Assembly (NCBI GenBank): GCA_019058295.1
Contig: JAHPZI010000028.1
Span: forward strand, 1-64,000
Direction of reading: 5' to 3'
Source: Promethearchaeota archaeon
GTDB lineage: Archaea; Asgardarchaeota; Lokiarchaeia; Sigyniarchaeales; SOKP01
DNA length: 64,000 nucleotides
Of the stretch, positions 1,421 through 50,492 are shown in pieces. The notes beneath the pieces are model-generated. The model was not told where the DNA came from. It made no database searches and was given only the letters and a program-made list of their open reading frames with translations. Each line of letters begins with the position of its first letter. Within the stretch, counting starts at the first letter, position 1. Made by a program: the position numbers and the translations under genes.

Positions 1421-2359
1421 GTGCGATTTATGAAAATGGATTATGATGAGGCTATAAAAAAGGAAGCAGCCTATTTTAATAAACTATTTGTTAAAAATTA
1501 TGAAGTAATGGATCTTCACTTATCAAAAAGAAGTAAAGATCCATTTTTTTATTGGGAAGATCCAAAATTGGAAAAAATTTTCGTGGGTAAATATCTAAAT
1601 CGTATTATTTATCCTTTTTCAAAAAAATCTTTGAAGATTTTGGAATGCGGTTGTGGATTAGGAAAAATATCCTTAGAATTATGTAGACAAAATCATATTA
1701 TCGATGCATATGATATTAGTGATAATGCTATTAAGTATGCTAACGAATATTATCAATCTTTAAAAAAAAAATCTCATAATTTTGGTACAATAAATTATGA
1801 AGTTAGAGATTTAAATAAAATAATTCTTCCAGAAGAAATTTATGATTTAATTGTATGTCACGGTTCAATGCATCATATCTTAAAATCAAAAAGGTTAATT
1901 AAAGAGGCTCATAAATCATTAAAAAGAGGCGCAAAATTTCTTCTTCTTGAAAATGTTGATCAAAAATCAAGGTTAGTCAAGATATTTAACGCAGGAATTG
2001 GTATACTGCTTAGTTTTTTAAAACCACTTAAATTTTATTATAAACTGTTAGAAAAAATAAAGTTGATTAAATCAAATAAGCTTGTTAAAAAATCTTATAT
2101 AAAATCCTTTCCTTTATCCCCTTTTGAAGGGGTTACAGGGAGAGAGATGTGTACCTATTTTATAGAAATCTTTGGAAAAGAAAACGTAAAGATTGAAACA
2201 GCAAATGCTTTTGCTAGAAATTGGGTTGTTAAAATTCCTGGACCAAATTTTATTAGATATCCTATAGCTCGTTTAATCAAACGGATTGATGATATTTTAA
2301 TAAAGATTGGATTTGTAGAAGGATCCAGTATTTTTATTGAAGCAAATAAAAGGAATTAG
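1421..2359 (+). CDS. class I SAM-dependent methyltransferase
   Basis: Motif I ILECGCGLG, AYDIS, YDLIVCHGSMHH, LKRGAKF. Confidence 0.85.
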   Translation: MRFMKMDYDEAIKKEAAYFNKLFVKNYEVMDLHLSKRSKDPFFYWEDPKLEKIFVGKYLNRIIYPFSKKSLKILECGCGLGKISLELCRQNHIIDAYDISDNAIKYANEYYQSLKKKSHNFGTINYEVRDLNKIILPEEIYDLIVCHGSMHHILKSKRLIKEAHKSLKRGAKFLLLENVDQKSRLVKIFNAGIGILLSFLKPLKFYYKLLEKIKLIKSNKLVKKSYIKSFPLSPFEGVTGREMCTYFIEIFGKENVKIETANAFARNWVVKIPGPNFIRYPIARLIKRIDDILIKIGFVEGSSIFIEANKRN

Positions 2360-2529
2360 AATTTCTGTTTTTCTTTTGATATCATCTATTTAATTACCAC
2401 ATCCTTTTATAAAACTGAAAAATATCTTTTTTATATTTCATATAATTAATTATTATTGAGAATTTTTGATTAATTAAAATAGATTTACTTAAATATTAAA
2501 ATATAAGGTGGAAGAACATTTCATTTTTT

Positions 2530-3441
2530 ATGTTAATTCACAAGCTTACAACATATCATGGAAAACCACAGAAATACTTATATTTTCTCTTAACTATACC
2601 AAGAATTAAAAAAATGATTAGATTAATTATTTTAAACTTTAGATACTTGACAAATTGGATAAGAATTTATCCTGATTTTATCATCATAGGAGCTGCGAAA
2701 TGTGGGACCACTTCTCTCTTTTATTATTTAAAACAGCATCCAGATATAAAAACTTCATATGTTAAAGAGGTTAAATTTTTCAATAAAAACAACTATTATT
2801 TAGGTTTTAAGCGGTATAGATCTTTCTTTCCAAGTTTGTTTTTTAAATATTTTTACAAATATATCTTAAAAAGAAAATTTATTACTGGTGAGGGATCATC
2901 CGATTATCTACGTCATCCAATCGTAGCTAAAAGAATTTATTCATTACTTCCTAAAGTAAAATTAATCATATTATTAAGAAATCCTGTGGATAGAGCATAT
3001 TCACATTATAATATGAATGTTAGATTTAATCTTGATAAATTATCTTTTGAAGAGGCTATAGAAAAAGAGCATGAACTATTGAAAGGTGGGATCGATAGAA
3101 TCCTTATAGATAAGCACTATAAAAAATTTAAATTCAACCGGTTTTTCTATTTATTAAGGGGTATTTATTTAAATCAAATAAAATTCTGGTTTCGGTATTT
3201 TCCAAAAGAGCAAATTTTAATATTAAAAAGCGAGGATTTCTTTGATCATCCTCCCGATATTCTAAAAAAAATTTTTAAATTTTTAGAAATACCAAACTGG
3301 AGGCTTTTTAAATATAATAAATGGAAAAAAGCTAATTATCAAAAGATGGATGATAAGACTAGAAATTGGTTGATTAATTATTATAAACCGTATAATAAAC
3401 GGTTATATGAATTTTTAGGTATAAATTTTAATTGGGATTAA
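2530..3441 (+). CDS. PAPS-dependent sulfotransferase (heparan-sulfate 3-O-ST/NDST-like domain)
   Basis: 5'-PSB loop PDFIIIGAAKCGTTSL, KEVKFF, 3'-PB motif LRNPVDRAYS; true start may be a later Met. Confidence 0.9.
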   Translation: MLIHKLTTYHGKPQKYLYFLLTIPRIKKMIRLIILNFRYLTNWIRIYPDFIIIGAAKCGTTSLFYYLKQHPDIKTSYVKEVKFFNKNNYYLGFKRYRSFFPSLFFKYFYKYILKRKFITGEGSSDYLRHPIVAKRIYSLLPKVKLIILLRNPVDRAYSHYNMNVRFNLDKLSFEEAIEKEHELLKGGIDRILIDKHYKKFKFNRFFYLLRGIYLNQIKFWFRYFPKEQILILKSEDFFDHPPDILKKIFKFLEIPNWRLFKYNKWKKANYQKMDDKTRNWLINYYKPYNKRLYEFLGINFNWD

Positions 3442-3524
3442 TTTCAAAAGTTATAAAATTTCTAGACCGCGGATATTTTTGATATTCACTTTTAAATTTT
3501 ATTTAAATTAGCTCCTTCTTTTAA

Positions 3525-4241
3525 TTATAGACCTAAGCATTTAATCAATTTATCAATATTTTGTCCAGTCTTAGCACTTGTTGTTAGAATAGTAATATTC
3601 GGATTAATTTTTTTCGCATCTTTTATCATTTTTTCAACATTGGTACCTAATCGTTCACGAAGGTCAATTTTATTTATGACTGCGATATCAGACATTTTAA
3701 ATAACATAGGATGTTTTTCAACAACCCATTCGCCTTCTGTTGTCGACACTATTACAACTCTATTGTCTGTTCCCAAGGAGAAATCCGAAGGGCATATTAA
3801 ATTTCCTACATTTTCAATGAAAATAACATCATAGTTTGTTAAATCTTTATTATTAATTATCTGATATATATGATACGCATTTAATGCACATTCACGTCCA
3901 GTATTAATTTGTATTGTTTCAGCGTTATGTCTCTCTATTCGGTCGGCATCAACTCTAGTTGTAATATCTCCACATATTACTAATACTCTATATTTTGATG
4001 AGATCGATTCGCTAATCTTTTCTAAAAGTGCGGTCTTGCCGGCTCCAATCGCTCCTACGATGTCATAAGATAATATGTTATGTTGTTTAAATATAATATT
4101 AATCTGCTCAGCTAAAGCATCGTTTTCTTGCCCAACTTCTTTTTTTGTCTCGATAACTAAATCCCTTATTTCATCTCTAGCTAAGTTAGTACTCTCGATT
4201 TCTCTAATCCTATGAATCTCCTTCTCTTCTTTATCTGACAT
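3525..4241 (-). CDS. hypB: hydrogenase nickel incorporation GTPase HypB
   Basis: GAIGAGKT P-loop, QINTGREC, IENVGNLICP, NKID, SAK. Confidence 0.9.
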   Translation of the reverse strand: MSDKEEKEIHRIREIESTNLARDEIRDLVIETKKEVGQENDALAEQINIIFKQHNILSYDIVGAIGAGKTALLEKISESISSKYRVLVICGDITTRVDADRIERHNAETIQINTGRECALNAYHIYQIINNKDLTNYDVIFIENVGNLICPSDFSLGTDNRVVIVSTTEGEWVVEKHPMLFKMSDIAVINKIDLRERLGTNVEKMIKDAKKINPNITILTTSAKTGQNIDKLIKCLGL

Positions 4242-4460
4242 TTTAAAACACTAATCCAAAATTATTATATAAGTAAATTGCAATTACAAAAAAAAGATAT
4301 TTAAAATGAAGGTTCTGTTAATTTTTTTCTTTATTCATGTAATCAAAAACATTTTAAAGTTAAATAAATCAAATGGTTTTGTATTCTCCTTAATCTTTTA
4401 AAGCAATAGATTTTTTCTATTAATTATAAAAATCGATGTTTTTAAAGGTAATTATGAGAA

Positions 4461-5960
4461 ATGCTGAATAATCTTCATAATTTGGGCTCTCCTTTAGAAT
4501 TCTGGGAATATTTTGAAAATATTTCTAAAATTCCGCATTGCTCTGGTGATGAGGGTAAGATTAGAGAATATATAAAAGACGAGGCAGAAAAATTCAATTA
4601 TGAAACAAAAATTGATAAAGCCGGGAATATCTTAGTAATAATACCACCGAAAAAAGAAATAAGATCTATTATAACTATCCAAAGCCATATGGATATGGTC
4701 TGCGAGAAGAATAAAGATGTTGAACACGACTTCTCTAAAGATCCTCTAAAACTAAAAATTATTACTTCCGATGGTAAAAAATGGCTTACTGCTGAAGGTA
4801 CTACTTTAGGTGCTGACAATGCGACTGGTATGGCTTATTCTTTAGCGATAATGAAAAAAATTCACAAGGGTGAATTAATTTTCGAAGATTTAGAAATAGA
4901 CTTATTATTTACGGTAAGTGAAGAATCTGGTATGTTTGGGGCAATGCAAATTGAAAAAGATCTTTTAAGAAGTAAGTCTTTAATAAATCTAGATTCGGGA
5001 GGAGAAAACGTAATTACGATAGGATGTGTCGGAGCTTTAATTACATATGTAGAAATTAGATCAGATTTAATAGATGTCAATCAAATAGAAGATAAATTAA
5101 AGCCTTTAGAAATAAAAATAACTGGATTGCTTGGGGGGCATTCTGGGGATGATATAGATAAAGGTCGTGCAAATTCTATAAAATTAATTACTAAAGTATT
5201 ATGGAAACTTAATCAAAACTTTTCAATTTTTATTAAATCAATAGACGGTGGTGGCGAACATCTAAATGCCCTGCCAAGAGAGGCCAAGTCAATTTTTTAT
5301 GCTAAAAACGAAGATTTACAGCAAGTTCAAGAATTATTTAAAATTATAATCTCAGAAATAAAGAAAGAGTATTCAAAAATCGAGAGGCATATTGAGATCT
5401 CCCTCTCGAAAATGGAGAATTATCCAAAAGAAACTGTTTTTTCTAAAGAGTTCCAAGATAAATTTTTAGATCTCTTAATTTCATTCCCGCATGGTCCTAT
5501 TTCAATGCATCCACAATTTGAAAATTTAGTACATACATCAACTAATTTAGCTTTCATTATTACGAAAAGGAACCGTATTAAAATCGAGTCAATGCAAAGA
5601 AGTTTTGAGAACACATCTTATAAAGAAATATCAGATAAGATAATTAAATTATTCAAAGATGCTGGCTTAAAAATTAAATTCAAGCAATTGGGGGGCTTTG
5701 GTGAATGGAATCCGAATTTTGATTCACCATTACTAAAACTTACTAAGGAAACATACGAAAACTCATCTGTTGAAAATATAATCATAACAGCACTTCACGT
5801 CGGCTTAGAACCAGGAGTTTTCCTAATGAACTACCCAGATCTTGATATGGTAGCAATAGGTCCTACTATGTATGCTCCACATTCTCCCGATGAGAGGTTA
5901 TCTATTCAGAGCGTTGAGAATTTTTGGAAAATTTTAGTCCGTTTACTAAAGAACATTTAG
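4461..5960 (+). CDS. pepD: aminoacyl-histidine dipeptidase (peptidase M20C)
   Basis: QSHMDMVCEK, TTLGADN, EE, GGHSG, HVGLE, HSPDERL motifs. Confidence 0.9.
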   Translation: MLNNLHNLGSPLEFWEYFENISKIPHCSGDEGKIREYIKDEAEKFNYETKIDKAGNILVIIPPKKEIRSIITIQSHMDMVCEKNKDVEHDFSKDPLKLKIITSDGKKWLTAEGTTLGADNATGMAYSLAIMKKIHKGELIFEDLEIDLLFTVSEESGMFGAMQIEKDLLRSKSLINLDSGGENVITIGCVGALITYVEIRSDLIDVNQIEDKLKPLEIKITGLLGGHSGDDIDKGRANSIKLITKVLWKLNQNFSIFIKSIDGGGEHLNALPREAKSIFYAKNEDLQQVQELFKIIISEIKKEYSKIERHIEISLSKMENYPKETVFSKEFQDKFLDLLISFPHGPISMHPQFENLVHTSTNLAFIITKRNRIKIESMQRSFENTSYKEISDKIIKLFKDAGLKIKFKQLGGFGEWNPNFDSPLLKLTKETYENSSVENIIITALHVGLEPGVFLMNYPDLDMVAIGPTMYAPHSPDERLSIQSVENFWKILVRLLKNI

Positions 5961-40907: not shown

Positions 40908-43097
40908 TTATTGATATGGTTTAATAACGTGAATAACATCATCAAAATCGATTCCAAGCTCTTTGACTAACTCAATTGTTGGGCAACCAAACGCATTCCA
41001 ACCACGTTTTTGATACACAGCCTCTTGAAGTTTAAAATACTGAATCTCTCTATATTTTCGCAAAATTTTCATTTTTTCTTCGGTAGATTTACCTTCGATA
41101 TCTATATCGAGCTCCTTTAATTGTTCATCATATCTTTTTTGGCGACTTTCATATTCCATTTTTGTTACTGGTCCCATTGCTCTATAAGGTATATTGGAAT
41201 CATGTTCGCTCAAACCTTTACCTTGACGAATGTTAAAAATCCTTTGTAAATTATAGACACGTTCAGACATTCGGATAAGATCATCAGGATCTGCATTGAT
41301 ACCTGTTACTGCCGTATAATAATCTGCATACCATTGAACATGTTGTGGAATTTTCGCTTGTAATAATTCCCCTGCCATTTTAATCGGCAAATCAAAATTC
41401 GATGGAGGAGGCACATCATTCCAAGGAAGTTTACAGAGCCCACATAACCCAAACCAGGTTCTCCATAAAGGAAACCAATATAATGCTTTAGCTTTATCTT
41501 CAAATGTTGGAATTGAGTGGCGTACAACATCTTCAAAAATCAACCATGCTTCATCATGTTGAGGCCCTTTGTTTGTGAAACCATAGCCTCCTTGTTGGGT
41601 GAGTGATTCCTTGGTAACATATTCAGAAAACTCAAGTCCTTTATGCTCCATTCCAATATCTTGTAAAAAATTAGGATCTCCACTATATTTCTCAGCGAAT
41701 AGTTTTTTTAATCGTTTTATTCCTTGACCAACGACCAGACCAAAACCTTCTCCTCGTGCCATTTGATGGATTAATTCAATTGCAGCTTCAGCATTTCCAA
41801 AATGCAACTCAAGTCCGCCTGTAATTTCTTTATTTATAATTCCCTCCTCATAACACTCCATAACAAAGGCAATTCCTGTTCCTACACTTATAGTATCTAA
41901 ACCATAGGTATCACAATAAAAATTAGCTTCCATTACCCATTGAGGATCCCATACACCCCAATTTGATCCACATCCAGCAATAGTTTCATATTCGGGTCCA
42001 TCAACAATTACTTTTTCTCCTTTAAACTGTCCGGTCATAACTTTATATTTTTCAACCCAATGACTACAGCTAACGCTACACCCAAAAAAGCATCCATCTG
42101 ATCCTTTTCCCGTACGTTCCCCGAAAAGATCAGCCCATACTTGGCGTTTATAAGGGATTTCTTTATCTTTAATTTCACGATGTTGACCAAATCGAAAATT
42201 TTCAGTTGGGAGTAAATCTGTAATATTCATAATATCTGGAAGGTATCCCGTTCCTACAATTCTCATTTGATTCATAGAAGGATCGTATGTTATTATTTCT
42301 TTTTTGTGTTTCCTCCCGATCTCAATTAATTTTTCTGGATCAGCAGGATTATTTTTTTTAACATCATATGGAGGAGATCGACATATTAATGCTTTAATTC
42401 TTTTGTTAGCAAATACACTCCCAATTCCTCCCCTTCCTGCTTGTTTACAAGAAGCCCATTTCCTTTTTCGTGCATACCACGAAGAATTTAGCATCCCCCA
42501 TCTTGTGTGCCTTGCGGCAGGTCCTGAACTAACAACAGAAACCATCTGCTTTTCTTTTTCCGTAGATTCTTTCGCAAATTTTTCTGTTAATTGTTGAGTA
42601 AGAAGATGTGAATAGTCTGAAAGATTGTCTGATTCTTCAACCCTTATAATTTGAACCATGTGATCTTGACCATTAATAAATATCAACACATCATTTTCGG
42701 TTTTTCCTTGAATTTCAAGGACATCAAAACCAGAACATTTTAGATAGGGTCCAAAATGCCCTCCTACATTGCTGTCTATCACAATTCCGGTCAGAGGGGA
42801 GATTGTTGTAACTATAGATTTGCCTCCTCCAGGATAATATGTACTTGCCCCTAAAGGACCTGTTGCCCAACAGATTTCATTTTCAGGGTCATCCCATTTA
42901 ACAATTCTGTCTTTCGGTAAGCTATTCCACATAAGCCAGAGATCAAAACCCCTCCCACCGATGAATTTTTCTTTCATTTCATCGGTTATAGGTTTAATTT
43001 TAATTTCGTTTGTTGTTAAATTTATGTATAAAGTTCGATTTGTATATCCCCGAACCATGTCTTGATGTTCATACTTGAGTTCTGCTAAAATCAACAC
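40908..43097 (-). CDS. aldehyde:ferredoxin oxidoreductase family (tungsto/molybdopterin) enzyme
   Basis: FIGGRG, SPLTG..DSNVGG, AGRGGIG, C..C...C, GPEYET, CDTYGLDTIS, GLC. Confidence 0.93.
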   Translation of the reverse strand: MLILAELKYEHQDMVRGYTNRTLYINLTTNEIKIKPITDEMKEKFIGGRGFDLWLMWNSLPKDRIVKWDDPENEICWATGPLGASTYYPGGGKSIVTTISPLTGIVIDSNVGGHFGPYLKCSGFDVLEIQGKTENDVLIFINGQDHMVQIIRVEESDNLSDYSHLLTQQLTEKFAKESTEKEKQMVSVVSSGPAARHTRWGMLNSSWYARKRKWASCKQAGRGGIGSVFANKRIKALICRSPPYDVKKNNPADPEKLIEIGRKHKKEIITYDPSMNQMRIVGTGYLPDIMNITDLLPTENFRFGQHREIKDKEIPYKRQVWADLFGERTGKGSDGCFFGCSVSCSHWVEKYKVMTGQFKGEKVIVDGPEYETIAGCGSNWGVWDPQWVMEANFYCDTYGLDTISVGTGIAFVMECYEEGIINKEITGGLELHFGNAEAAIELIHQMARGEGFGLVVGQGIKRLKKLFAEKYSGDPNFLQDIGMEHKGLEFSEYVTKESLTQQGGYGFTNKGPQHDEAWLIFEDVVRHSIPTFEDKAKALYWFPLWRTWFGLCGLCKLPWNDVPPPSNFDLPIKMAGELLQAKIPQHVQWYADYYTAVTGINADPDDLIRMSERVYNLQRIFNIRQGKGLSEHDSNIPYRAMGPVTKMEYESRQKRYDEQLKELDIDIEGKSTEEKMKILRKYREIQYFKLQEAVYQKRGWNAFGCPTIELVKELGIDFDDVIHVIKPYQ

Positions 43098-43246: not shown

Positions 43247-44116
43247 ATGGTTGATACAGCCACTAAAGTTCGAGAAATACAGAAAAAATTTAATATCATT
43301 GGAAGATCAGAGGAACTAAAAAAAATAATATTGGCACGTGTAGTTGGAAAGAACATATTAATTGAAGGTGAAGTTGGAGTTGGTAAAACAACCTTAGCAC
43401 AGGCAGTTTCCAACTACTTTGATTCAAATTTTTATCGAATAGACTGTTCAGAAGAAATTTTGACCCATAGTTTAGTAGGTCATTGGGATCCTCCACTTGT
43501 TATTGCAAAAGGATATGAAGAGGATTCTTACGTTTATGGACCGCTTGCCTTAGCCATGTCGAAAGGGGGCTGTTTATTTATTAATGAAATTAATAGAATG
43601 CCCGAAAGCACTCAAAATGCGTTACTAACTTCATTAGACGAGAAAATTCTTGATATCCCCAAATTAAAAACCATTAAAGCAAACAATGAATTTTTTGTTG
43701 TTGCAACCTTAAATCCTTCGGCACATGTTGGAGTAACGGCATTAGGAGAAGCTTTAAAAGATAGATTCATCTGGATTAAATTAGATTATCAAAAACCAGA
43801 AGAAGAAATCGAAATTATTAAAAAGGAAGTTGATATTGATGATGATATTGATAATAAAATCATACAGATATCACAAGAAATAGTACAAGCAACGAGAGAT
43901 AACACATCTATACGTAGAGGAAGTTCAATTAGAGGTGCCATTGATTTAACAGCATTAATAACTCAATATGATAACAATACCAGCACTAAAAACTGGATTG
44001 AAGCTGCAATAATGGCGCTTTATAATAAAATTGAAATGGAAGATGGTGTAGCAAAATCGAAAAAAGAAATTATCACTGAAATCGTTTTATCTATATTAAA
44101 TGACTCGGATTTTTAG
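43247..44116 (+). CDS. MoxR-type AAA+ ATPase
   Basis: GEVGVGKT, FINEINR (Walker B variant), QNALL, TLNP, EALKDRF, SIRG. Confidence 0.9.
   Translation: MVDTATKVREIQKKFNIIGRSEELKKIILARVVGKNILIEGEVGVGKTTLAQAVSNYFDSNFYRIDCSEEILTHSLVGHWDPPLVIAKGYEEDSYVYGPLALAMSKGGCLFINEINRMPESTQNALLTSLDEKILDIPKLKTIKANNEFFVVATLNPSAHVGVTALGEALKDRFIWIKLDYQKPEEEIEIIKKEVDIDDDIDNKIIQISQEIVQATRDNTSIRRGSSIRGAIDLTALITQYDNNTSTKNWIEAAIMALYNKIEMEDGVAKSKKEIITEIVLSILNDSDF
44107..44116 (+). promoter_or_regulatory. candidate -1 ribosomal frameshift site G_GAU_UUU_UAG
   Basis: Slippery heptamer fills the last two MoxR codons, inside the 13-nt window (44104-44116) where the -1 (vWA) frame is already open. Confidence 0.55.
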
Positions 44117-45231
44117 TAATCGATGATTTCTCAGAGGAAGAATCCAATGAGATTGAGAGAAAGCGGCTTAATGTTAGGCTTACGGAGAGCCCTCCTGATA
44201 AAGAAATCCTAAGATTAGAAATAATTCGGAGCAAAAAGAAAAAACCTGATTACTATCGCCACTTAGCAAATACATTGGATTATAAGCAAATAAAAGAAAT
44301 GACTTATTTAGCAATCCAATATAAAAATCTTGAAGCTATTATGGGTATGCTTAAGTCAAACGTTTACGCAGCGACGGATGCTTTAGACTGCGAAGATGGG
44401 GTAAAATTTTTTACCGAAAAATCTAAAGAATCAAATATGGTTATGCCGGAAATATATTTCTTTATCAGACGACCGATTTCGCCAAAATATAAAAATATTT
44501 TTAGAAGGCTTGCCCGTCAGAGTATTTTGAAAACTTCCTTGAAAATCACTAGCAGAGGTATTAAAGGAACATTGAAAAAGATTTTCCCTTATTATGAAAT
44601 TGGAATGCCTGAGTTTGATCTGGATGAGACCATTCAACATAATCCGCTAAAAATTTATGAAAAAAGCCTTTCTCATAAAGATATTTATGGAATTAAAAGG
44701 CAACAGCAAAAAAGGAATGTGGTTTTAATTCTTGATACGAGTGGCAGTATGTATGGAAAAACATTATTAAATGCCGCTCTTACAACATCTGTTCTAGCCT
44801 ATAATATGGAAAAGGAAAATTATGGTATAGTCCTTTTCAATTCAACAGCTATGACATTAAAAAGAATTAATGATAAAAAATCAATTATCTCTATTATCGA
44901 TGAAATTCTAGATTCTGAGGCTGTAGGATTTACTAACATCCAAATTGGTTTAGAGAAAGGTTTAAAACAATTAAATCAAGTTAAAGAAAATAGAAAACAT
45001 AAATTTGGTATTTTAATTACTGATGGAAATTATAATCGTGGAGAAAATCCTCTTACTATCTCAAAAAAATATCCTAAATTACATGTAATAGGTATGCCTG
45101 CAGAGAATGACGCTGATAGAGGTCTTGATACTTGTCGAGAACTTGCCAAAGCTGGAAAAGGAAAATTTTTTGCCGTAACCGATTATAAAGAAATTCCGAG
45201 AGCGCTCATAAATTTATTGTCTCAAACTTAA
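44113..45231 (+). CDS. von Willebrand factor A domain protein; frame open from 44104, first near-canonical start only at TTG 44275
   Basis: MIDAS DTSGSM, TNI..GL, LITDG; upstream in-frame LVIDDFSEEESNEIERKRLNV... is stop-free and protein-like. Confidence 0.85.
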   Translation, partial: LVIDDFSEEESNEIERKRLNVRLTESPPDKEILRLEIIRSKKKKPDYYRHLANTLDYKQIKEMTYLAIQYKNLEAIMGMLKSNVYAATDALDCEDGVKFFTEKSKESNMVMPEIYFFIRRPISPKYKNIFRRLARQSILKTSLKITSRGIKGTLKKIFPYYEIGMPEFDLDETIQHNPLKIYEKSLSHKDIYGIKRQQQKRNVVLILDTSGSMYGKTLLNAALTTSVLAYNMEKENYGIVLFNSTAMTLKRINDKKSIISIIDEILDSEAVGFTNIQIGLEKGLKQLNQVKENRKHKFGILITDGNYNRGENPLTISKKYPKLHVIGMPAENDADRGLDTCRELAKAGKGKFFAVTDYKEIPRALINLLSQT

Positions 45232-45542: not shown

Positions 45543-48500
45543 ATGATGAAAAAAAGTAATAAAATAAAAATTTTAGCGGTTTTACTTTTTTCTATGATTG
45601 TTTTTACATTATTTATTCAAGTGAGTTTTCTTTCGCTCTTGAATAAAGACGAAACTCAGGAACAACCAATTCAAAAGGCTAAAGAAATAAAATCTAGTGC
45701 TGTTATAACAGAATTCTTATATATAAACCAAGAGGATTACAATAATAATTGGACCGTCGTAAAAGATAAGTATTCATTTATTACAGGTTCCGGAACACTA
45801 GGAGATCCTTATCTGATAAGTAATACTGAATTTGATGGTCAAAATATCCATGGAGCTATTACAATAAATAACTCAAAAAATGTGAACTTTAAAATTAAAA
45901 ATTGCCGATTTTATAACATTGGGTCATCAGATTCCCCAAGTGCAGCAATACAAATAATAGATTCCCGGAATGGAACAATTACAGGATGTGATTTTTCTAG
46001 TTCCGATGACGGCAATATTGGAATAAAAATGTTTAATGGAACTTGGAAAATGACAATTGCTAATAATAATTTTACTAATTTCAAATACGCAATTTATGCC
46101 GAATCAAGTTATCAAAATATTATTTCAGGAAATAATATCGATGAAAATAATGTTGGAATTTACTTAAAATTATGGTGTAATATGAATGAGATTTATAATA
46201 ATTATCTTAGTGAGAATTCTATTGCGGGTATATTTTTAACTGATAGTTGCTGGAATAATAAAATTTCAGGAAATATCATTAATGATAATGTTGTTTTCGG
46301 GGTACTCATAGCATTCTCTGGTAATACCAAAATTTACGGAAACAATTCAATTAATAATAATGGTTATGGAATATATATGACAGGATCCGATTGGAATAAT
46401 ATCGAAAATAATACAATTATATCAAATAATAACGATGGCGTTTATATATCTGGTTCTTGGTGGAACAATTTTACAAGAAATCTAATAAAGGATAATGTAG
46501 AAGTTGGTGTACATATCGATGAATCTAAGGGTGATAGTCAAAATAATTACATATACGAGAATGATTTTATTAATAATGGAGAACACGCGATTGATTACGA
46601 TTATTCAAATAATTGGAATAAAAATAATGTAGGCAATAAGTGGGATAATTATACCCAATTAACTGGTGGGAAGGATGCCGATGATGATGGTATCGGAGAT
46701 GCTCCATATAATTTCACTGGTGGTCGTGATTATTATCCAATCTATAACGATGGACTTGACGCTGGACCTTATCCTGGTGTGATTTGGATAGATGAAAATA
46801 GTCCACAATGGAATTGGACATGGGCAAAAGATAGATATTGGTTCACTGGAGGGGATGGGGGGGTTTTAAATCCTTATACAATTTCTCCTAACATATTCTG
46901 GGAGGGTAAAATTGATGGACTTGGACAATATTCATGTATTACTCTCGTTAATACTCATGGACCATATTTTATTCTCGAGGATTTAACTCTCTACAATTCG
47001 GGATCAGCTGGAATAAATATAACTGATTCTGGAGTTGGAAAAATCATTAATTGTAATAGTTCTAACAATGGAGATGGAATATTCCTCGATGAAGCGCAGT
47101 TTATCAATATTTCACAATGTATTCTCAATGATAATTCCCGTGCCGGCATATTTGTAACCAATGATTCTATGAACAATCTTGCTTGGGATAATTCTCTTTC
47201 GAATAATGATTATGGTATATATATAGAAGATGATAGTGATAATAATAATTTCACGTCTAATATTATCTTAAATAGCGATCTTTATGGAGCCTATGTTTCT
47301 GGTGCTAAAGTAGATGTTAATGATACTGTGTTTTATGAAAATACATTTCAAAATAAACTAACAGGCGATAATGCATATGATGATGGACCTGATACAATAT
47401 GGTATCTTAATGAAAGGGGCAATAGTTGGGATGATTATCCTGATGCCCCTATATATGGAAAAGATGCCGATGATGATGGTATTGGAGATAAATCTTATGA
47501 TAAAATTTATGGCAGTGCTAATTCGATTGATAAATACCCTATTTATTTCGATGATTTAGATGAGTATGCTCTATATATTGATGATAATGCAACTGGTCCA
47601 GGCGCACATAATTGGACTTGGGCAAGTAAAAGATTATTTATTACAGGTAATGGCTCAGCAATCGATCCATATCTCATCAAAGATGTGAGTTTTAATGGAA
47701 GTAAGTTATGGGATAACAGTTGGCCAAAATGCGGTATAACAATTAAAAATTCTGCTGAGTATAATATATATTTTAAAATCGAGAATTGCACTATTTATGA
47801 CGCCATAGATGCAGGGATCTATTTAAATAACGCATCAAGAGGAACAATAATCAATAATTCTATCGATATTTCTAATAATCCGAATTTAAAAATTGGGATT
47901 CATTTAACAAATTCAGCTAATTTAAACAATATATCTTACAACACTCTGAATTCTTTTGAGAAAGGACTGTTTATGAATTATTCCTGTTACAGTAATTATA
48001 TTAAGGGAAATTTTATGGAATGGAACGACTGGGGAATTATTTTAGAACGTTGGTGTTCAAGTAACGTACTTATTAACAATACATTATCTAATAACAATTT
48101 TGCTGGATTATTTTTCAATAATTCATGTTACGTGAATAATGTAACTCAGTGTACAATTAGTAATAATTTAGATGGAATACGATTTAGGAAAAGTTGTAAG
48201 AGTAATGAGATCTTTGAGAATGATATTAAACGTAATAATCAATTTGATAGTAAAGGTGTACTTATATTAGATAATGATTCTGCATATAATATCTTTTACG
48301 AAAATAATTTTACTGGAAACACTATACATGTTCTTGATGATGGGACTTACAATAGATGGAATACAACAGTCTATGGAAATCAAATTGGAAATATTTGGGG
48401 AAATTATACCGAAATCCCTGGCCATGCAGATGATGATGACGATGGGATCGGAGACGTACCATACCCAATACGTAATTCGACAGGAGCTTGGATAAACAAC

Positions 48501-50492
48501 GATTTTTGTCCAATATATGATGATGGTCATAATGGAGATAAAGTTTTTATTGATGGTTTGGGCGTGAGCCCCGGTTATATGAGTTGGAACACGGTAGAAA
48601 AGAAAAGTTGGTGTTCGGGATCGGGATCGCTTTCTGATCCATATATCATTAGTGGCTTAAGAATTGATGCGGGAGGTTTAAATAGTTGTATTATCTTAAG
48701 AGATTCATCTAAAAATGTCATGTTTTATGATTGTAAAGGCATTAATGCTGAAGATGGCGGAGGTAAATATTTTGCAGGATTAAGATTAATCAATGTATCG
48801 AATGTAACAATAACTAATTGTAATTTTTCTTTAAATGGAGATTTTGGAATATATATAACTGGGTTCTATTGGAATCCCTGTGAGAAAATTAAAATTAAGG
48901 AAAACACCTTAGAAGATAATGGAATGAGCGGAATATATGGATTTGATTCTATTATTGAATCTGAAATTCATAAAAACAATATCACTGATAATGAACTCCA
49001 TGGAATTCATCTTTATAAACACTGCGATAATAATTCAATTAAATGGAATACTATTAATGATCATAGTAATGGAGCTGGAATTCGCATAGAAAATATTTCC
49101 GAAAACAACCTAATTTATAATAATTGGCTAACATTAAATAAATACGGGATTAATTTAGATGATGTCAATTATAATGATATAATAAAAAACGATATAGCTG
49201 ATTCAACTACAGATGGAATTTATCTAGAGGAACGTTCCGGTAATTTCTTTATTGAGGATAACAGAATTTACTCCAGTACTGAAAGTGGAATAAATTTTGT
49301 AACTGTTTCTGAATTTTGGTATTTTCGAAATAATGTTACAATTATTGATAATGAAATCTACGATAATCATGAATATGGTATAGAGTTAAGAGATGCTGAA
49401 TTCTGCTTTATTATTAACAATACTTTGAGGATTAACGATAGAGGGATTGGAGTTGTTAAACGATGCTCACAAAATAAGATTATAGGTAATGATATCTTTG
49501 ATAATTTTATAGTAGGACTATATTTTGATATTGATTGTGGAGGCAACTATATATATAAAAATAATTTCACTGGAAATTTTGAACACGCCGATGATTCTGC
49601 CTTATTTCCCATAGAAAATCAATGGTATTTTAATCTTAAGGGGAATTATTGGGATGATTACGGCGACCAAGGTGGTAAAGATAGCAATGATGATGGTGTT
49701 GGAGATGATGGTATCCCTTATAATGTACCAAGCCTCATGAATTTAAAAGATCTTTATCCTATTTGGTGGGACGCCCCGAATTTTACAATTCTTAAACCAC
49801 AACAAAACGCGCAACTCTCAGCAGAACAAAATCCAGAATTCGTAATTAAATTTGATGAGGGAGAATCATATCACTTATGGTATGAAATTGTAGGAGTTGG
49901 AACAAGTCCTATAACTGTTAAATTCACTCCCCCCAAAATAGAAGGAGAGGATGATTACATTGAAAAGATTGATAATAATTTATGGAAGAATACTCCCCAA
50001 GGACAAAGAACAATTAGATTTTATACTAACGATAGTAGAGGCTATGTTCGCTATAATGATGTTTTGATTACAAAATTAAATGCAACAATCAAAGAAGCTC
50101 CTCCCCCAACTGCCGTTGATGATGATGATGATGATGGTGCTGGTAAAGATGAAGAAGAAGAAGGATTACCTTGGTGGCTTCAAGCGATATTTACAGGTAT
50201 TATAAGTGCGACCGCGGGTTTGGTAATTAAGATGTCTTATAGCGCACATAAACGGAAAAAAGAACTATACAGAAAAGTATCTGATAGTTTTGATAGAATT
50301 GATAATCTGGAGATATTTTTACAAGATAAATTAGGTACGGAAGAATGGGCTAAACTTAAAGGACCAATTCAACAATATCAGAATCATGAGATCTCTTCAA
50401 AAAAATTGATAAAAGAGAGTAAGAAGTCTGTTGGGAAAAGATTTATAGAATTATTTATTAGACCCAAACCTAAGAAAAGAATGAAATCCTAA
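45543..50492 (+). CDS. large cell-surface protein with four NosD/PbH1 beta-helix modules, TM anchor and cytoplasmic tail
   Basis: N-terminal signal/TM; four modules G.G...PY.I ... GN.W..Y ... D.DDDG.GD ... D.YP; poly-Asp linker, TM near aa 1545, ~80-aa tail. Confidence 0.88.
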   Translation: MMKKSNKIKILAVLLFSMIVFTLFIQVSFLSLLNKDETQEQPIQKAKEIKSSAVITEFLYINQEDYNNNWTVVKDKYSFITGSGTLGDPYLISNTEFDGQNIHGAITINNSKNVNFKIKNCRFYNIGSSDSPSAAIQIIDSRNGTITGCDFSSSDDGNIGIKMFNGTWKMTIANNNFTNFKYAIYAESSYQNIISGNNIDENNVGIYLKLWCNMNEIYNNYLSENSIAGIFLTDSCWNNKISGNIINDNVVFGVLIAFSGNTKIYGNNSINNNGYGIYMTGSDWNNIENNTIISNNNDGVYISGSWWNNFTRNLIKDNVEVGVHIDESKGDSQNNYIYENDFINNGEHAIDYDYSNNWNKNNVGNKWDNYTQLTGGKDADDDGIGDAPYNFTGGRDYYPIYNDGLDAGPYPGVIWIDENSPQWNWTWAKDRYWFTGGDGGVLNPYTISPNIFWEGKIDGLGQYSCITLVNTHGPYFILEDLTLYNSGSAGINITDSGVGKIINCNSSNNGDGIFLDEAQFINISQCILNDNSRAGIFVTNDSMNNLAWDNSLSNNDYGIYIEDDSDNNNFTSNIILNSDLYGAYVSGAKVDVNDTVFYENTFQNKLTGDNAYDDGPDTIWYLNERGNSWDDYPDAPIYGKDADDDGIGDKSYDKIYGSANSIDKYPIYFDDLDEYALYIDDNATGPGAHNWTWASKRLFITGNGSAIDPYLIKDVSFNGSKLWDNSWPKCGITIKNSAEYNIYFKIENCTIYDAIDAGIYLNNASRGTIINNSIDISNNPNLKIGIHLTNSANLNNISYNTLNSFEKGLFMNYSCYSNYIKGNFMEWNDWGIILERWCSSNVLINNTLSNNNFAGLFFNNSCYVNNVTQCTISNNLDGIRFRKSCKSNEIFENDIKRNNQFDSKGVLILDNDSAYNIFYENNFTGNTIHVLDDGTYNRWNTTVYGNQIGNIWGNYTEIPGHADDDDDGIGDVPYPIRNSTGAWINNDFCPIYDDGHNGDKVFIDGLGVSPGYMSWNTVEKKSWCSGSGSLSDPYIISGLRIDAGGLNSCIILRDSSKNVMFYDCKGINAEDGGGKYFAGLRLINVSNVTITNCNFSLNGDFGIYITGFYWNPCEKIKIKENTLEDNGMSGIYGFDSIIESEIHKNNITDNELHGIHLYKHCDNNSIKWNTINDHSNGAGIRIENISENNLIYNNWLTLNKYGINLDDVNYNDIIKNDIADSTTDGIYLEERSGNFFIEDNRIYSSTESGINFVTVSEFWYFRNNVTIIDNEIYDNHEYGIELRDAEFCFIINNTLRINDRGIGVVKRCSQNKIIGNDIFDNFIVGLYFDIDCGGNYIYKNNFTGNFEHADDSALFPIENQWYFNLKGNYWDDYGDQGGKDSNDDGVGDDGIPYNVPSLMNLKDLYPIWWDAPNFTILKPQQNAQLSAEQNPEFVIKFDEGESYHLWYEIVGVGTSPITVKFTPPKIEGEDDYIEKIDNNLWKNTPQGQRTIRFYTNDSRGYVRYNDVLITKLNATIKEAPPPTAVDDDDDDGAGKDEEEEGLPWWLQAIFTGIISATAGLVIKMSYSAHKRKKELYRKVSDSFDRIDNLEIFLQDKLGTEEWAKLKGPIQQYQNHEISSKKLIKESKKSVGKRFIELFIRPKPKKRMKS

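Follow-up and report, generated by a model that had tools for sequence, protein, structure and literature searches.

In the genome of a Promethearchaeota archaeon, a gene for a MoxR-type AAA+ ATPase runs into an overlapping reading frame for a vWA-domain protein that lacks an evident start codon, which raises the question of how the second frame comes to be translated. The locus lies in a window of 64,000 nucleotides (nt), the whole stretch of DNA analysed here (contig JAHPZI010000028.1 of NCBI GenBank assembly GCA_019058295.1, positions 1 to 64,000 of the forward strand), and its source is a metagenome-assembled genome (MAG; 79% complete, 30 contigs). A preliminary description, made from the sequence without database searches, had proposed that the two frames are joined by a programmed -1 frameshift at G_GAU_UUU. 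Comparison across Asgard archaea supports this proposal well: programmed -1 ribosomal frameshifting probably makes both the ATPase and an ATPase-vWA fusion. The conclusion draws on a conserved -1 frame relation, a conserved slip motif, coding selection on the linker, the lack of a conserved start codon, a downstream hairpin and the existence of natural in-frame fusions.

The AAA+/vWA layout described earlier was confirmed directly on the letters of the window, and its individual elements (opening at 44104, 13-nt overlap, 57 start-less codons, a 661-amino-acid (aa) fusion as against a 289-aa ATPase) all proved to be correct. The -1 frame is closed by TGA at 44101-44103 and stays open from 44104 up to its terminal TAA, sharing with the ATPase open reading frame (ORF) 13 nt (CTCGGATTTTTAG; CTC GGA TTT TTA G). 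Its translation starts LGFLVIDDFSEEESNEIER..., and 57 codons follow the opening without a single ATG, GTG or TTG. A slip on G_GAU_UUU would yield a protein of 289 + 372 = 661 aa with the predicted trans-frame junction ...NDSDF-LVIDDFSEEE (predicted junction peptide ...NDSDFLVIDDFSEEE), the -1 part of which is composed of an acidic linker, a helical domain (~ residues 12-145) and a vWA/MIDAS domain.

Conservation of this arrangement was assessed in 35 genomes of the same order, in a phylum-wide sample of 400 genomes (257 with an ortholog, the open frames listed being ~ 360-395 aa long) and in a separate scan of species-representative genomes that yielded 56 complete loci from the family to which the window belongs. 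Junctions were read at 62 orthologous loci from ~ 20 families of the phylum, closed genomes among them. The vWA frame was -1 relative to the ATPase in all 35 genomes of the order and at 56/56 complete loci of the family; at the 62 loci read across the phylum, 57 are -1, 4 are +1 and 2 are in frame. Sequence identity between the orthologs compared drops to 45% in the AAA half and 32% in the vWA half. The preliminary description had made its proposal hinge on whether the -1 relation and the slippery U-run persist among orthologs and whether these lack an ATG and Shine-Dalgarno sequence of their own, and this pattern was indeed found, at 57/62 loci overall and 56/56 in the family. It had also pointed to a possible indel in the T-run, of which the independent assemblies of three other studies show no sign: their contigs (X4, X5 and X8; 95-97% identical) cross 44104-44120 gap-free.

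The names under which these relatives are deposited vary. Many are labelled Promethearchaeota or Promethearchaeia (Asgard, Lokiarchaeia-type; Loki_b32 among them), while same-family MAGs of one study (carrying loci L068, L072, L080, L089 and others, 74-86% identical here) bear differing phylum-level names (Hodarchaeota, Hermodarchaeota, Odinarchaeota, Promethearchaeota), which are unreliable for placing the AAA-vWA gene.

Within the frame overlap, in the zero frame, lies a slippery heptamer of the variant that allows A-site re-pairing. The motif N_NNT_TTY occurs inside the overlap at 56 of the 57 loci with a -1 arrangement, is retained even in the narrowest overlaps (13 nt), and is 0-1 codon away from the zero-frame stop at 54/57 loci and 2-5 codons away at two more. 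The family consensus reads GAU UUU CAR UAA, and the window, together with a few scattered genera, carries TAR for CAR; counted by locus, GAT TTT CAR TAR is found at 49/56 and GAT TTT TAR TAA at 7/56. In the window the C-to-T change brings the stop forward by one codon, so that it abuts the slip codon. The signal as originally proposed, a slippery run GGAUUUUU plus UAG, holds for the U-run, whose core U_UUY in N_NNU_UUY is the conserved element, and fails for the adjacent UAG, which is derived. Heptamers at the -1 loci are mostly G_GAU_UUU or A_GAU_UUU; fully canonical ones (A_AAU_UUU, C_CCU_UUU and U_UUU_UUC/A/U) appear in several lineages, and a few loci have poor P-site re-pairing.

The slip motif persists against codon bias. 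TTT is kept at loci of 62-53% GC, where it makes up 4-26% of Phe codons; the extreme case (L033, 62% GC) has GAT TTT TTC although TTT accounts for 4% of its Phe codons. The codons before TTT include GGT and CGT, in genes where these form 18-39% of their codon families, and the third base of the codon before TTY is T at 56/56 loci. At the protein level, when 31 diverse ATPases are aligned, the Phe encoded by the slip site (F289) is the sole invariant residue among the last 30. The preliminary description named the heptamer G_GAU_UUU as a viral -1 site, and this use is documented, in umbraviruses (PEMV2, PMC4737148) and in insect-specific flaviviruses (PMC4342338).

No initiation signal of its own could be recognised for the downstream frame, and coding selection on it begins at the shift site. 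The first ATG, GTG or TTG in the vWA frame falls anywhere from codon 11 to codon 113 in the window's family, one ortholog (L049) has none within 110 codons, and no near-cognate start codon conserved between families was found across the orthologous junctions. The ratio of nonsynonymous to synonymous divergence (pN/pS) is 0.25 for the start-less codons 21-55, compared with 0.18-0.30 elsewhere in both halves (0.18-0.20 in the rest of the vWA part), and the other two frames of the start-less region are interrupted by 95 and 136 stops across 19 sequences. By these substitution patterns the start-less linker is coding sequence under purifying selection. Over the first 20 codons synonymous divergence (pS) is lower, at 0.46 compared with ~ 0.78 elsewhere, which indicates an overlapping constraint at the RNA level; a 26-nt block here (GATTTT.A.TAATCGATGATTTCTC) is near-invariant in the family.

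The same region holds a candidate stimulatory structure, for which the preliminary description had suggested looking downstream of the slip site and which was located there at the expected spacing as a bulged hairpin. When 42 nt beginning 5 nt past the slip codon were folded and compared with all other 42-nt segments of the same gene, the window gave a free energy of -9.1 kcal/mol against -3.4 ± 2.4 kcal/mol for the other segments (2.6% tail), and the 5% tail of own-gene folding was reached at 24/56 loci, with about 3 expected. Across 62 distinct family sequences, pairing was present in 91.4% of cells, against 28-58% with the partners slid, and five pairs had changed on both sides. A pattern shared by many lineages consists of the slip codon, 8 nt, GA, a stem of 5-10 bp, the loop, the other arm and GAUGA, with stem arms differing by lineage (GGGAATTCG/CGAATTCCC, GGAGAT/ATCTCC, GGAAA/TTTCC, GAGGACATTT/AGATGTCCTT, GGGCGGG/CCCGCCC). 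In the window's family the structure starts 6 nt after UUU, inside the 5-9 nt expected of a stimulator, and shows covariation, its stability being modest and many of its pairs invariant; in other lineages, stems of differing sequence lie 8-10 nt downstream. The signal emerged from the same-gene comparison and from inspection of spacing; the 87-nt and 54-nt stretches downstream, folded generically and set against dinucleotide shuffles, had z between -1.0 and +1.4, weak stems were all that RNAalifold returned for a 123-nt alignment of the family, and an Rfam scan of 43950-44350 produced no match. Taken together, these comparisons give moderate support to a real hairpin in the family.

Hairpins flanked by 5' GA and 3' GAUGA, 10 nt after the slip codon, were seen at L039-L043, L049, L051, L053, L055, L056 and L062, and their arms covary along with the encoded amino acids (e.g. 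GI...IP vs EE...TS). The 5' GA and 3' GAUGA could pair as a tandem G.A at the base of the helix. A kink-turn (K-turn) reading of the family sequence (AUC/GAU/GA-UU-UCUC...GAGA-UU-GA/GA) was considered and set aside: its register fits the window's family, its C-stem has 2 bp and is unsupported in other lineages, and it is weakened further by the fact that a ribosome on the slip site would unwind such a fold. A further variant, in which L7Ae binds a tandem-GA-flanked K-turn-like hairpin and makes the product ratio protein-regulated, would be of low probability.

Natural variants of the locus include in-frame fusions. One relative (L064, ATPase 51% identical) has a single ORF of 714 aa that reads ...NNFFREK... 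through TTT TTT CGT, and another locus (L066) is an in-frame paralog of 648 aa. With the vWA half as query of an exhaustive search, 24 of the top 150 representatives were proteins of 563-711 aa that matched in their C-terminal part, and all of the long forms scanned (8/8) had AAA_5 followed by VWA in one ORF. A word-index search for longer proteins (E 1e-10 or better) had found no in-frame fusion, which is weak evidence; the 24 long forms came from the exhaustive search. The existence of in-frame AAA_5-vWA relatives implies that the fusion is a natural product, an argument that has also been made for chlD (PMC3711429).

A +1 vWA frame with an invariant UUU_UUU_CGN at the junction characterises four lineages (families f18, f21, f24 and f32); family f18 shows this in 7/7 genomes. 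The +1 loci are L044, L125-L130 (family f18), L061, L063 and L065, and within one genus L063 is +1 and L064 in frame. The core of this motif, UUU followed by a CGN Arg codon, is also that of the influenza A PA-X +1 site UCC_UUU_CGU (PMC3498833); the likeness is one of sequence alone and concerns these +1 relatives, not the window. The window's own genome also holds a paralogous pair (L036; contig C14: 54000-59000) of a 277-aa AAA_5 ORF (4138-4971, minus strand) and an 870-aa vWA protein (1539-4151, minus strand), which overlap by 14 nt with the vWA frame at +1 and opening exactly at a TTG. This pair could be a case of ordinary coupling or a second case of recoding.

The mechanism proposed for the window is the following. 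Most ribosomes would stop at UAG once the AAA+ ATPase is translated and release the 289-aa product, while a fraction would slip back one base on G_GAU_UUU, either in tandem, UUU being in the A site, or by slippage of peptidyl-tRNA-Phe on U_UUU while the stop codon occupies the A site; P-site slippage beside the stop gives a product identical to that of the tandem slip. Slipped ribosomes would read UUA and continue into the linker-helical-vWA frame, producing the 661-aa AAA+-linker-vWA protein. The bulged hairpin is a likely stimulator, as is, in the window's genus, the stop codon next to the slip site. Short and long products would then join in one MoxR-type hexamer, to which one or a few vWA/MIDAS adaptor domains would be tethered. 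The ribosomal nature of the shift, its efficiency and its purpose are what we infer from sequence comparison. The coordinates of all elements are given in Table 1.

Table 1. Elements of the AAA+-vWA locus and of its proposed recoding signal (window positions)
Feature	Position	Strand	Remarks
ORF1, zero frame: AAA+ ATPase, MoxR class (Pfam AAA_5), 289 aa, short product	43247..44116	+	ATG 43247, stop UAG 44114-44116
Proposed -1 slip site G_GAU_UUU	44107..44113	+	A-site tRNA-Phe would re-pair from UUU to UUU
-1 frame part of the predicted long product, 372 codons	44113..45231	+	From UUA 44113; stop TAA 45229-45231
Zero-frame stops UAG and UAA	44114..44119	+	UAA is the stop conserved in the family; UAG derived (CAR-to-UAR)
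Candidate stimulatory bulged hairpin, 6 nt after the UUU codon	44120..44156	+	Folding and family pairing
Hairpin stem 1 (candidate)	44120-23 with 44153-56; bulge 44124-28	+	
Hairpin stem 2 (candidate)	44129-33 with 44148-52	+	
Hairpin stem 3 (candidate)	44136-38 with 44143-45	+	
First canonical start (TTG) in the vWA frame, codon 58	44275..44277	+	Probably unused; position not conserved

Several observations weigh against programmed -1 frameshifting at this site. In bacteria, U-runs shift less well than A_AAA_AAG (PMC5009743), and G_GAU_UUU permits poor P-site re-pairing only (GAU to GGA). The hairpin of the window is modest (-9 kcal/mol) with a shuffle z of just -0.3 to -1.0, it has A at 44146 where the consensus has G, and most hairpin pairs in the family are invariant, so that the support from covariation is limited. 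One locus of the same class (L048, genome G166) is without the U-run: its overlap is 10 nt, its heptamer A_AAC_CCU, and a TTG overlaps its ATPase stop (CCT TGA), so independent initiation is possible there. The same is true of family f18, with a TTG just upstream of the +1 site, three codons before the U-run.

These two TTG codons are among the observations that would fit an arrangement of two separate genes, in which the vWA protein arises from independent initiation or from termination-reinitiation, at AUA, AUC or GUA near 44116-44121 or at the TTG of codon 58, and the U-run and overlap are by-products of a conserved Asp-Phe C-terminus. The partners in NorQ/NorD, CbbQ/CbbO and RavA/ViaA are normally separate proteins (PMC13036017, PMC9976466), and many lineages have purine-rich GAGG motifs after the stop. 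The GAGG, however, forms the 5' arm of the covarying hairpin, encodes Glu and has no start after it. More generally, no canonical or near-cognate start is conserved anywhere, purifying selection sets in right at the U-run, a T precedes TTY at 56/56 loci and TTY is kept against codon bias, neither of which is needed for initiation, and in-frame AAA_5-vWA fusions occur. We consider two separate genes an unlikely arrangement on this evidence.

A shift made by RNA polymerase rather than by the ribosome, with slippage on the T-run giving mRNAs with one U more or less that encode the fusion in frame, would account for the occurrence of both -1 and +1 arrangements around U-runs, and some lineages do have T6-T8. 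Transcriptional slippage of this type makes dnaX gamma in Thermus and has been discussed for chlD-like poly-A sites (PMC3711429, PMC5009743). The run, however, is T5 in the window and T4 in most of the family, against the at least 8 named for programmed transcriptional realignment (PMC3711429), and the conserved register of N_NNT_TTY and the hairpin at a fixed 6-8 nt are features of ribosomal slippage; transcriptional slippage is very improbable by comparison. The last explanation, a T-run indel from sequencing or assembly or a recently broken in-frame fusion, could be prompted by the incompleteness and fragmentation of the MAG, the error-proneness of homopolymers and the in-frame relatives. 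Against it stand the same run, with no gaps, in the independent contigs of the three studies, the same frame relation at 57/62 loci including those of closed genomes, and purifying selection on both halves, and it can be regarded as refuted for practical purposes.

The protein labels of the preliminary description, MoxR AAA+ and vWA, were borne out by Pfam, with a full-length AAA_5 match in ORF1 (positions 1-139 of 139, E 2.8e-21) and VWA at residues 205-365 of the second ORF (E 8.5e-14). Conserved motifs of the ATPase are Walker A (GEVGVGKT), sensor 1 (N156), the Arg finger (R173) and sensor 2 (RRGxSxRG), and the MIDAS motif DxSGS...T...D is intact in the vWA half. Among single-domain structures in the PDB, the ATPase is closest to MoxR 2r44 (59 bits), CbbQ and NorQ (neighbours 2r44, 5c3c, 9qh4). 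The AlphaFold model of the vWA half (mean pLDDT 84) starts with a disordered acidic segment and has a domain of nine helices and a vWA fold, and its Foldseek matches are vWA domains, with the NorD VWA among the top. With AAA_5 motifs and an adjacent vWA/MIDAS partner, the ATPase is, on sequence, of MoxR class (AAA_5, near CbbQ/NorQ/GvpN) and not a chelatase subunit, Walker B being the exception to the motif set. This motif is hhhhNE and not the usual DE (LFINEINR, window 43580-43590), with N113-E114 invariant in 31 diverse orthologs; an ATPase with such a Walker B may have altered handling of Mg2+ or ATP.

A chelatase identity was rejected since NCBIfam scores lie far under their cut-offs (TIGR02031 BchD-ChlD, 24.3 bits vs 499.6; TIGR02442, 28.7 vs 779.5) and no CobN/ChlH (PF02514) was found in the window's own genome (79% complete) or in 4/5 locus-bearing relatives (93-100% complete), controls being positive; Pfam Mg_chelatase matches the Walker A stretch only, as opposed to the full-length AAA_5. 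Membership in the ternary MoxR-vWA-beta-propeller system was likewise discarded (bpMoxR, PF20030: 20.3 bits vs a cut-off of 27), the neighbours here being an AOR gene and a beta-helix protein. Kinship with midasin/Rea1 was not sustained either: a PDB match with E 5e-36 sums six tandem AAA modules, the best single one giving 35.6 bits vs 58.9 for MoxR 2r44, and the Rea1 MIDAS domain ranks 26th by fold, after BatB and NorD.

The neighbouring genes are, upstream, an aldehyde:ferredoxin oxidoreductase-like (AOR) ORF of 729 aa (40908-43097, minus strand) and, downstream, a repeat-rich (beta-helix-like) surface protein of 1649 aa (45543-50492, plus strand) with hydrophobic segments at its N- and C-terminus. 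A search for a conserved neighbour or client around the AAA-vWA gene found the AOR and beta-helix genes to be common to the nearest relative only.

The closest parallel is frameshifted chlD, and the analogy drawn with it in the preliminary description is apt (PMC3711429, PMC9227772). In chlD, one gene gives a short AAA+ protein and a long protein of AAA+, acidic linker and vWA/MIDAS domain through a shift at the end of the AAA+ module, as is proposed here; in both, -1 is the usual frame relation and +1 an occasional one, a structure lies downstream, in-frame relatives exist, and archaea are included (PMC3711429, PMC9227772, PMC5009743). Frameshifting of chlD has been validated in E. coli reporters (PMC3711429). 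The two differ in the AAA+ module, which is of the Mg_chelatase ChlI/ChlD family in chlD and of AAA_5/MoxR class here, and in the slip site, which is A_AAA_AAR or poly-A in chlD and a U-run N_NNU_UUY next to a stop here. The viral G_GAU_UUU/Y sites share the heptamer and a hairpin few nt downstream (PMC4737148, PMC4342338), whereas the viral stimulator is a pseudoknot or long-range element and the one considered here is a short bulged hairpin in a cellular archaeal gene. The stop directly 3' of the slippery run in the window is in turn reminiscent of 'shifty stop' P-site slippage (PMC5009743).

As in this locus, NorQ/NorD, CbbQ/CbbO and RavA/ViaA each pair an AAA_5 ATPase with a MIDAS vWA protein encoded directly downstream (PMC13036017, PMC9976466). 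Those are separate polypeptides with their own starts, whereas the vWA half here is start-less and probably tethered; their clients are cNOR, Rubisco and respiratory complexes, and here there is no conserved neighbour. In NorQD, the VWA domain of NorD inserts one finger into the pore of the NorQ hexamer (PMC13036017). Judging from NorQ6-NorD and from the ChlI/ChlD of frameshifted chlD, a mixed hexamer is the likely purpose of the shift, which may serve to set the ATPase:adaptor stoichiometry. A more specific version, in which the shift is tuned to about one tethered vWA/MIDAS arm per hexamer (5 short : 1 long), asymmetric and conserved across Asgard archaea, is a speculation to which we give little credence, and it is equally doubtful that such a 5:1 hexamer would recreate the midasin-like layout of 6 AAA_5 : 1 MIDAS by recoding instead of gene fusion.

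Frameshifting to AAA+ and AAA+-vWA products is already known from chlD (PMC3711429, PMC9227772, PMC5009743). What would be new here is its occurrence in another AAA+ family, at a U-run and with another stimulator, in a form that Asgard archaea conserve; our literature searches found no published description of a frameshifted AAA_5-vWA gene. A review of recoding (PMC5009743) lists little for archaeal cells besides viral tail genes, chlD and a Sulfolobus fucosidase. If true, the present case adds a recoded gene conserved over most of the Asgard phylum to the few well-supported cellular archaeal ones, and its natural -1, +1 and in-frame variants, together with the covarying hairpin, could provide a comparative system for frameshifting on Asgard ribosomes. 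It also bears on annotation, as gene calls in hundreds of Asgard genomes cut the vWA half short or misplace its start; in the exhaustive search, the starts of the vWA representatives range from query residue 7 to residue 100 or beyond. For the biology of these proteins, the locus suggests that a second AAA+ family, in addition to the chelatases, has evolved or retained a one-gene AAA+ motor produced in two forms, one bearing a tethered vWA adaptor and one lacking it.

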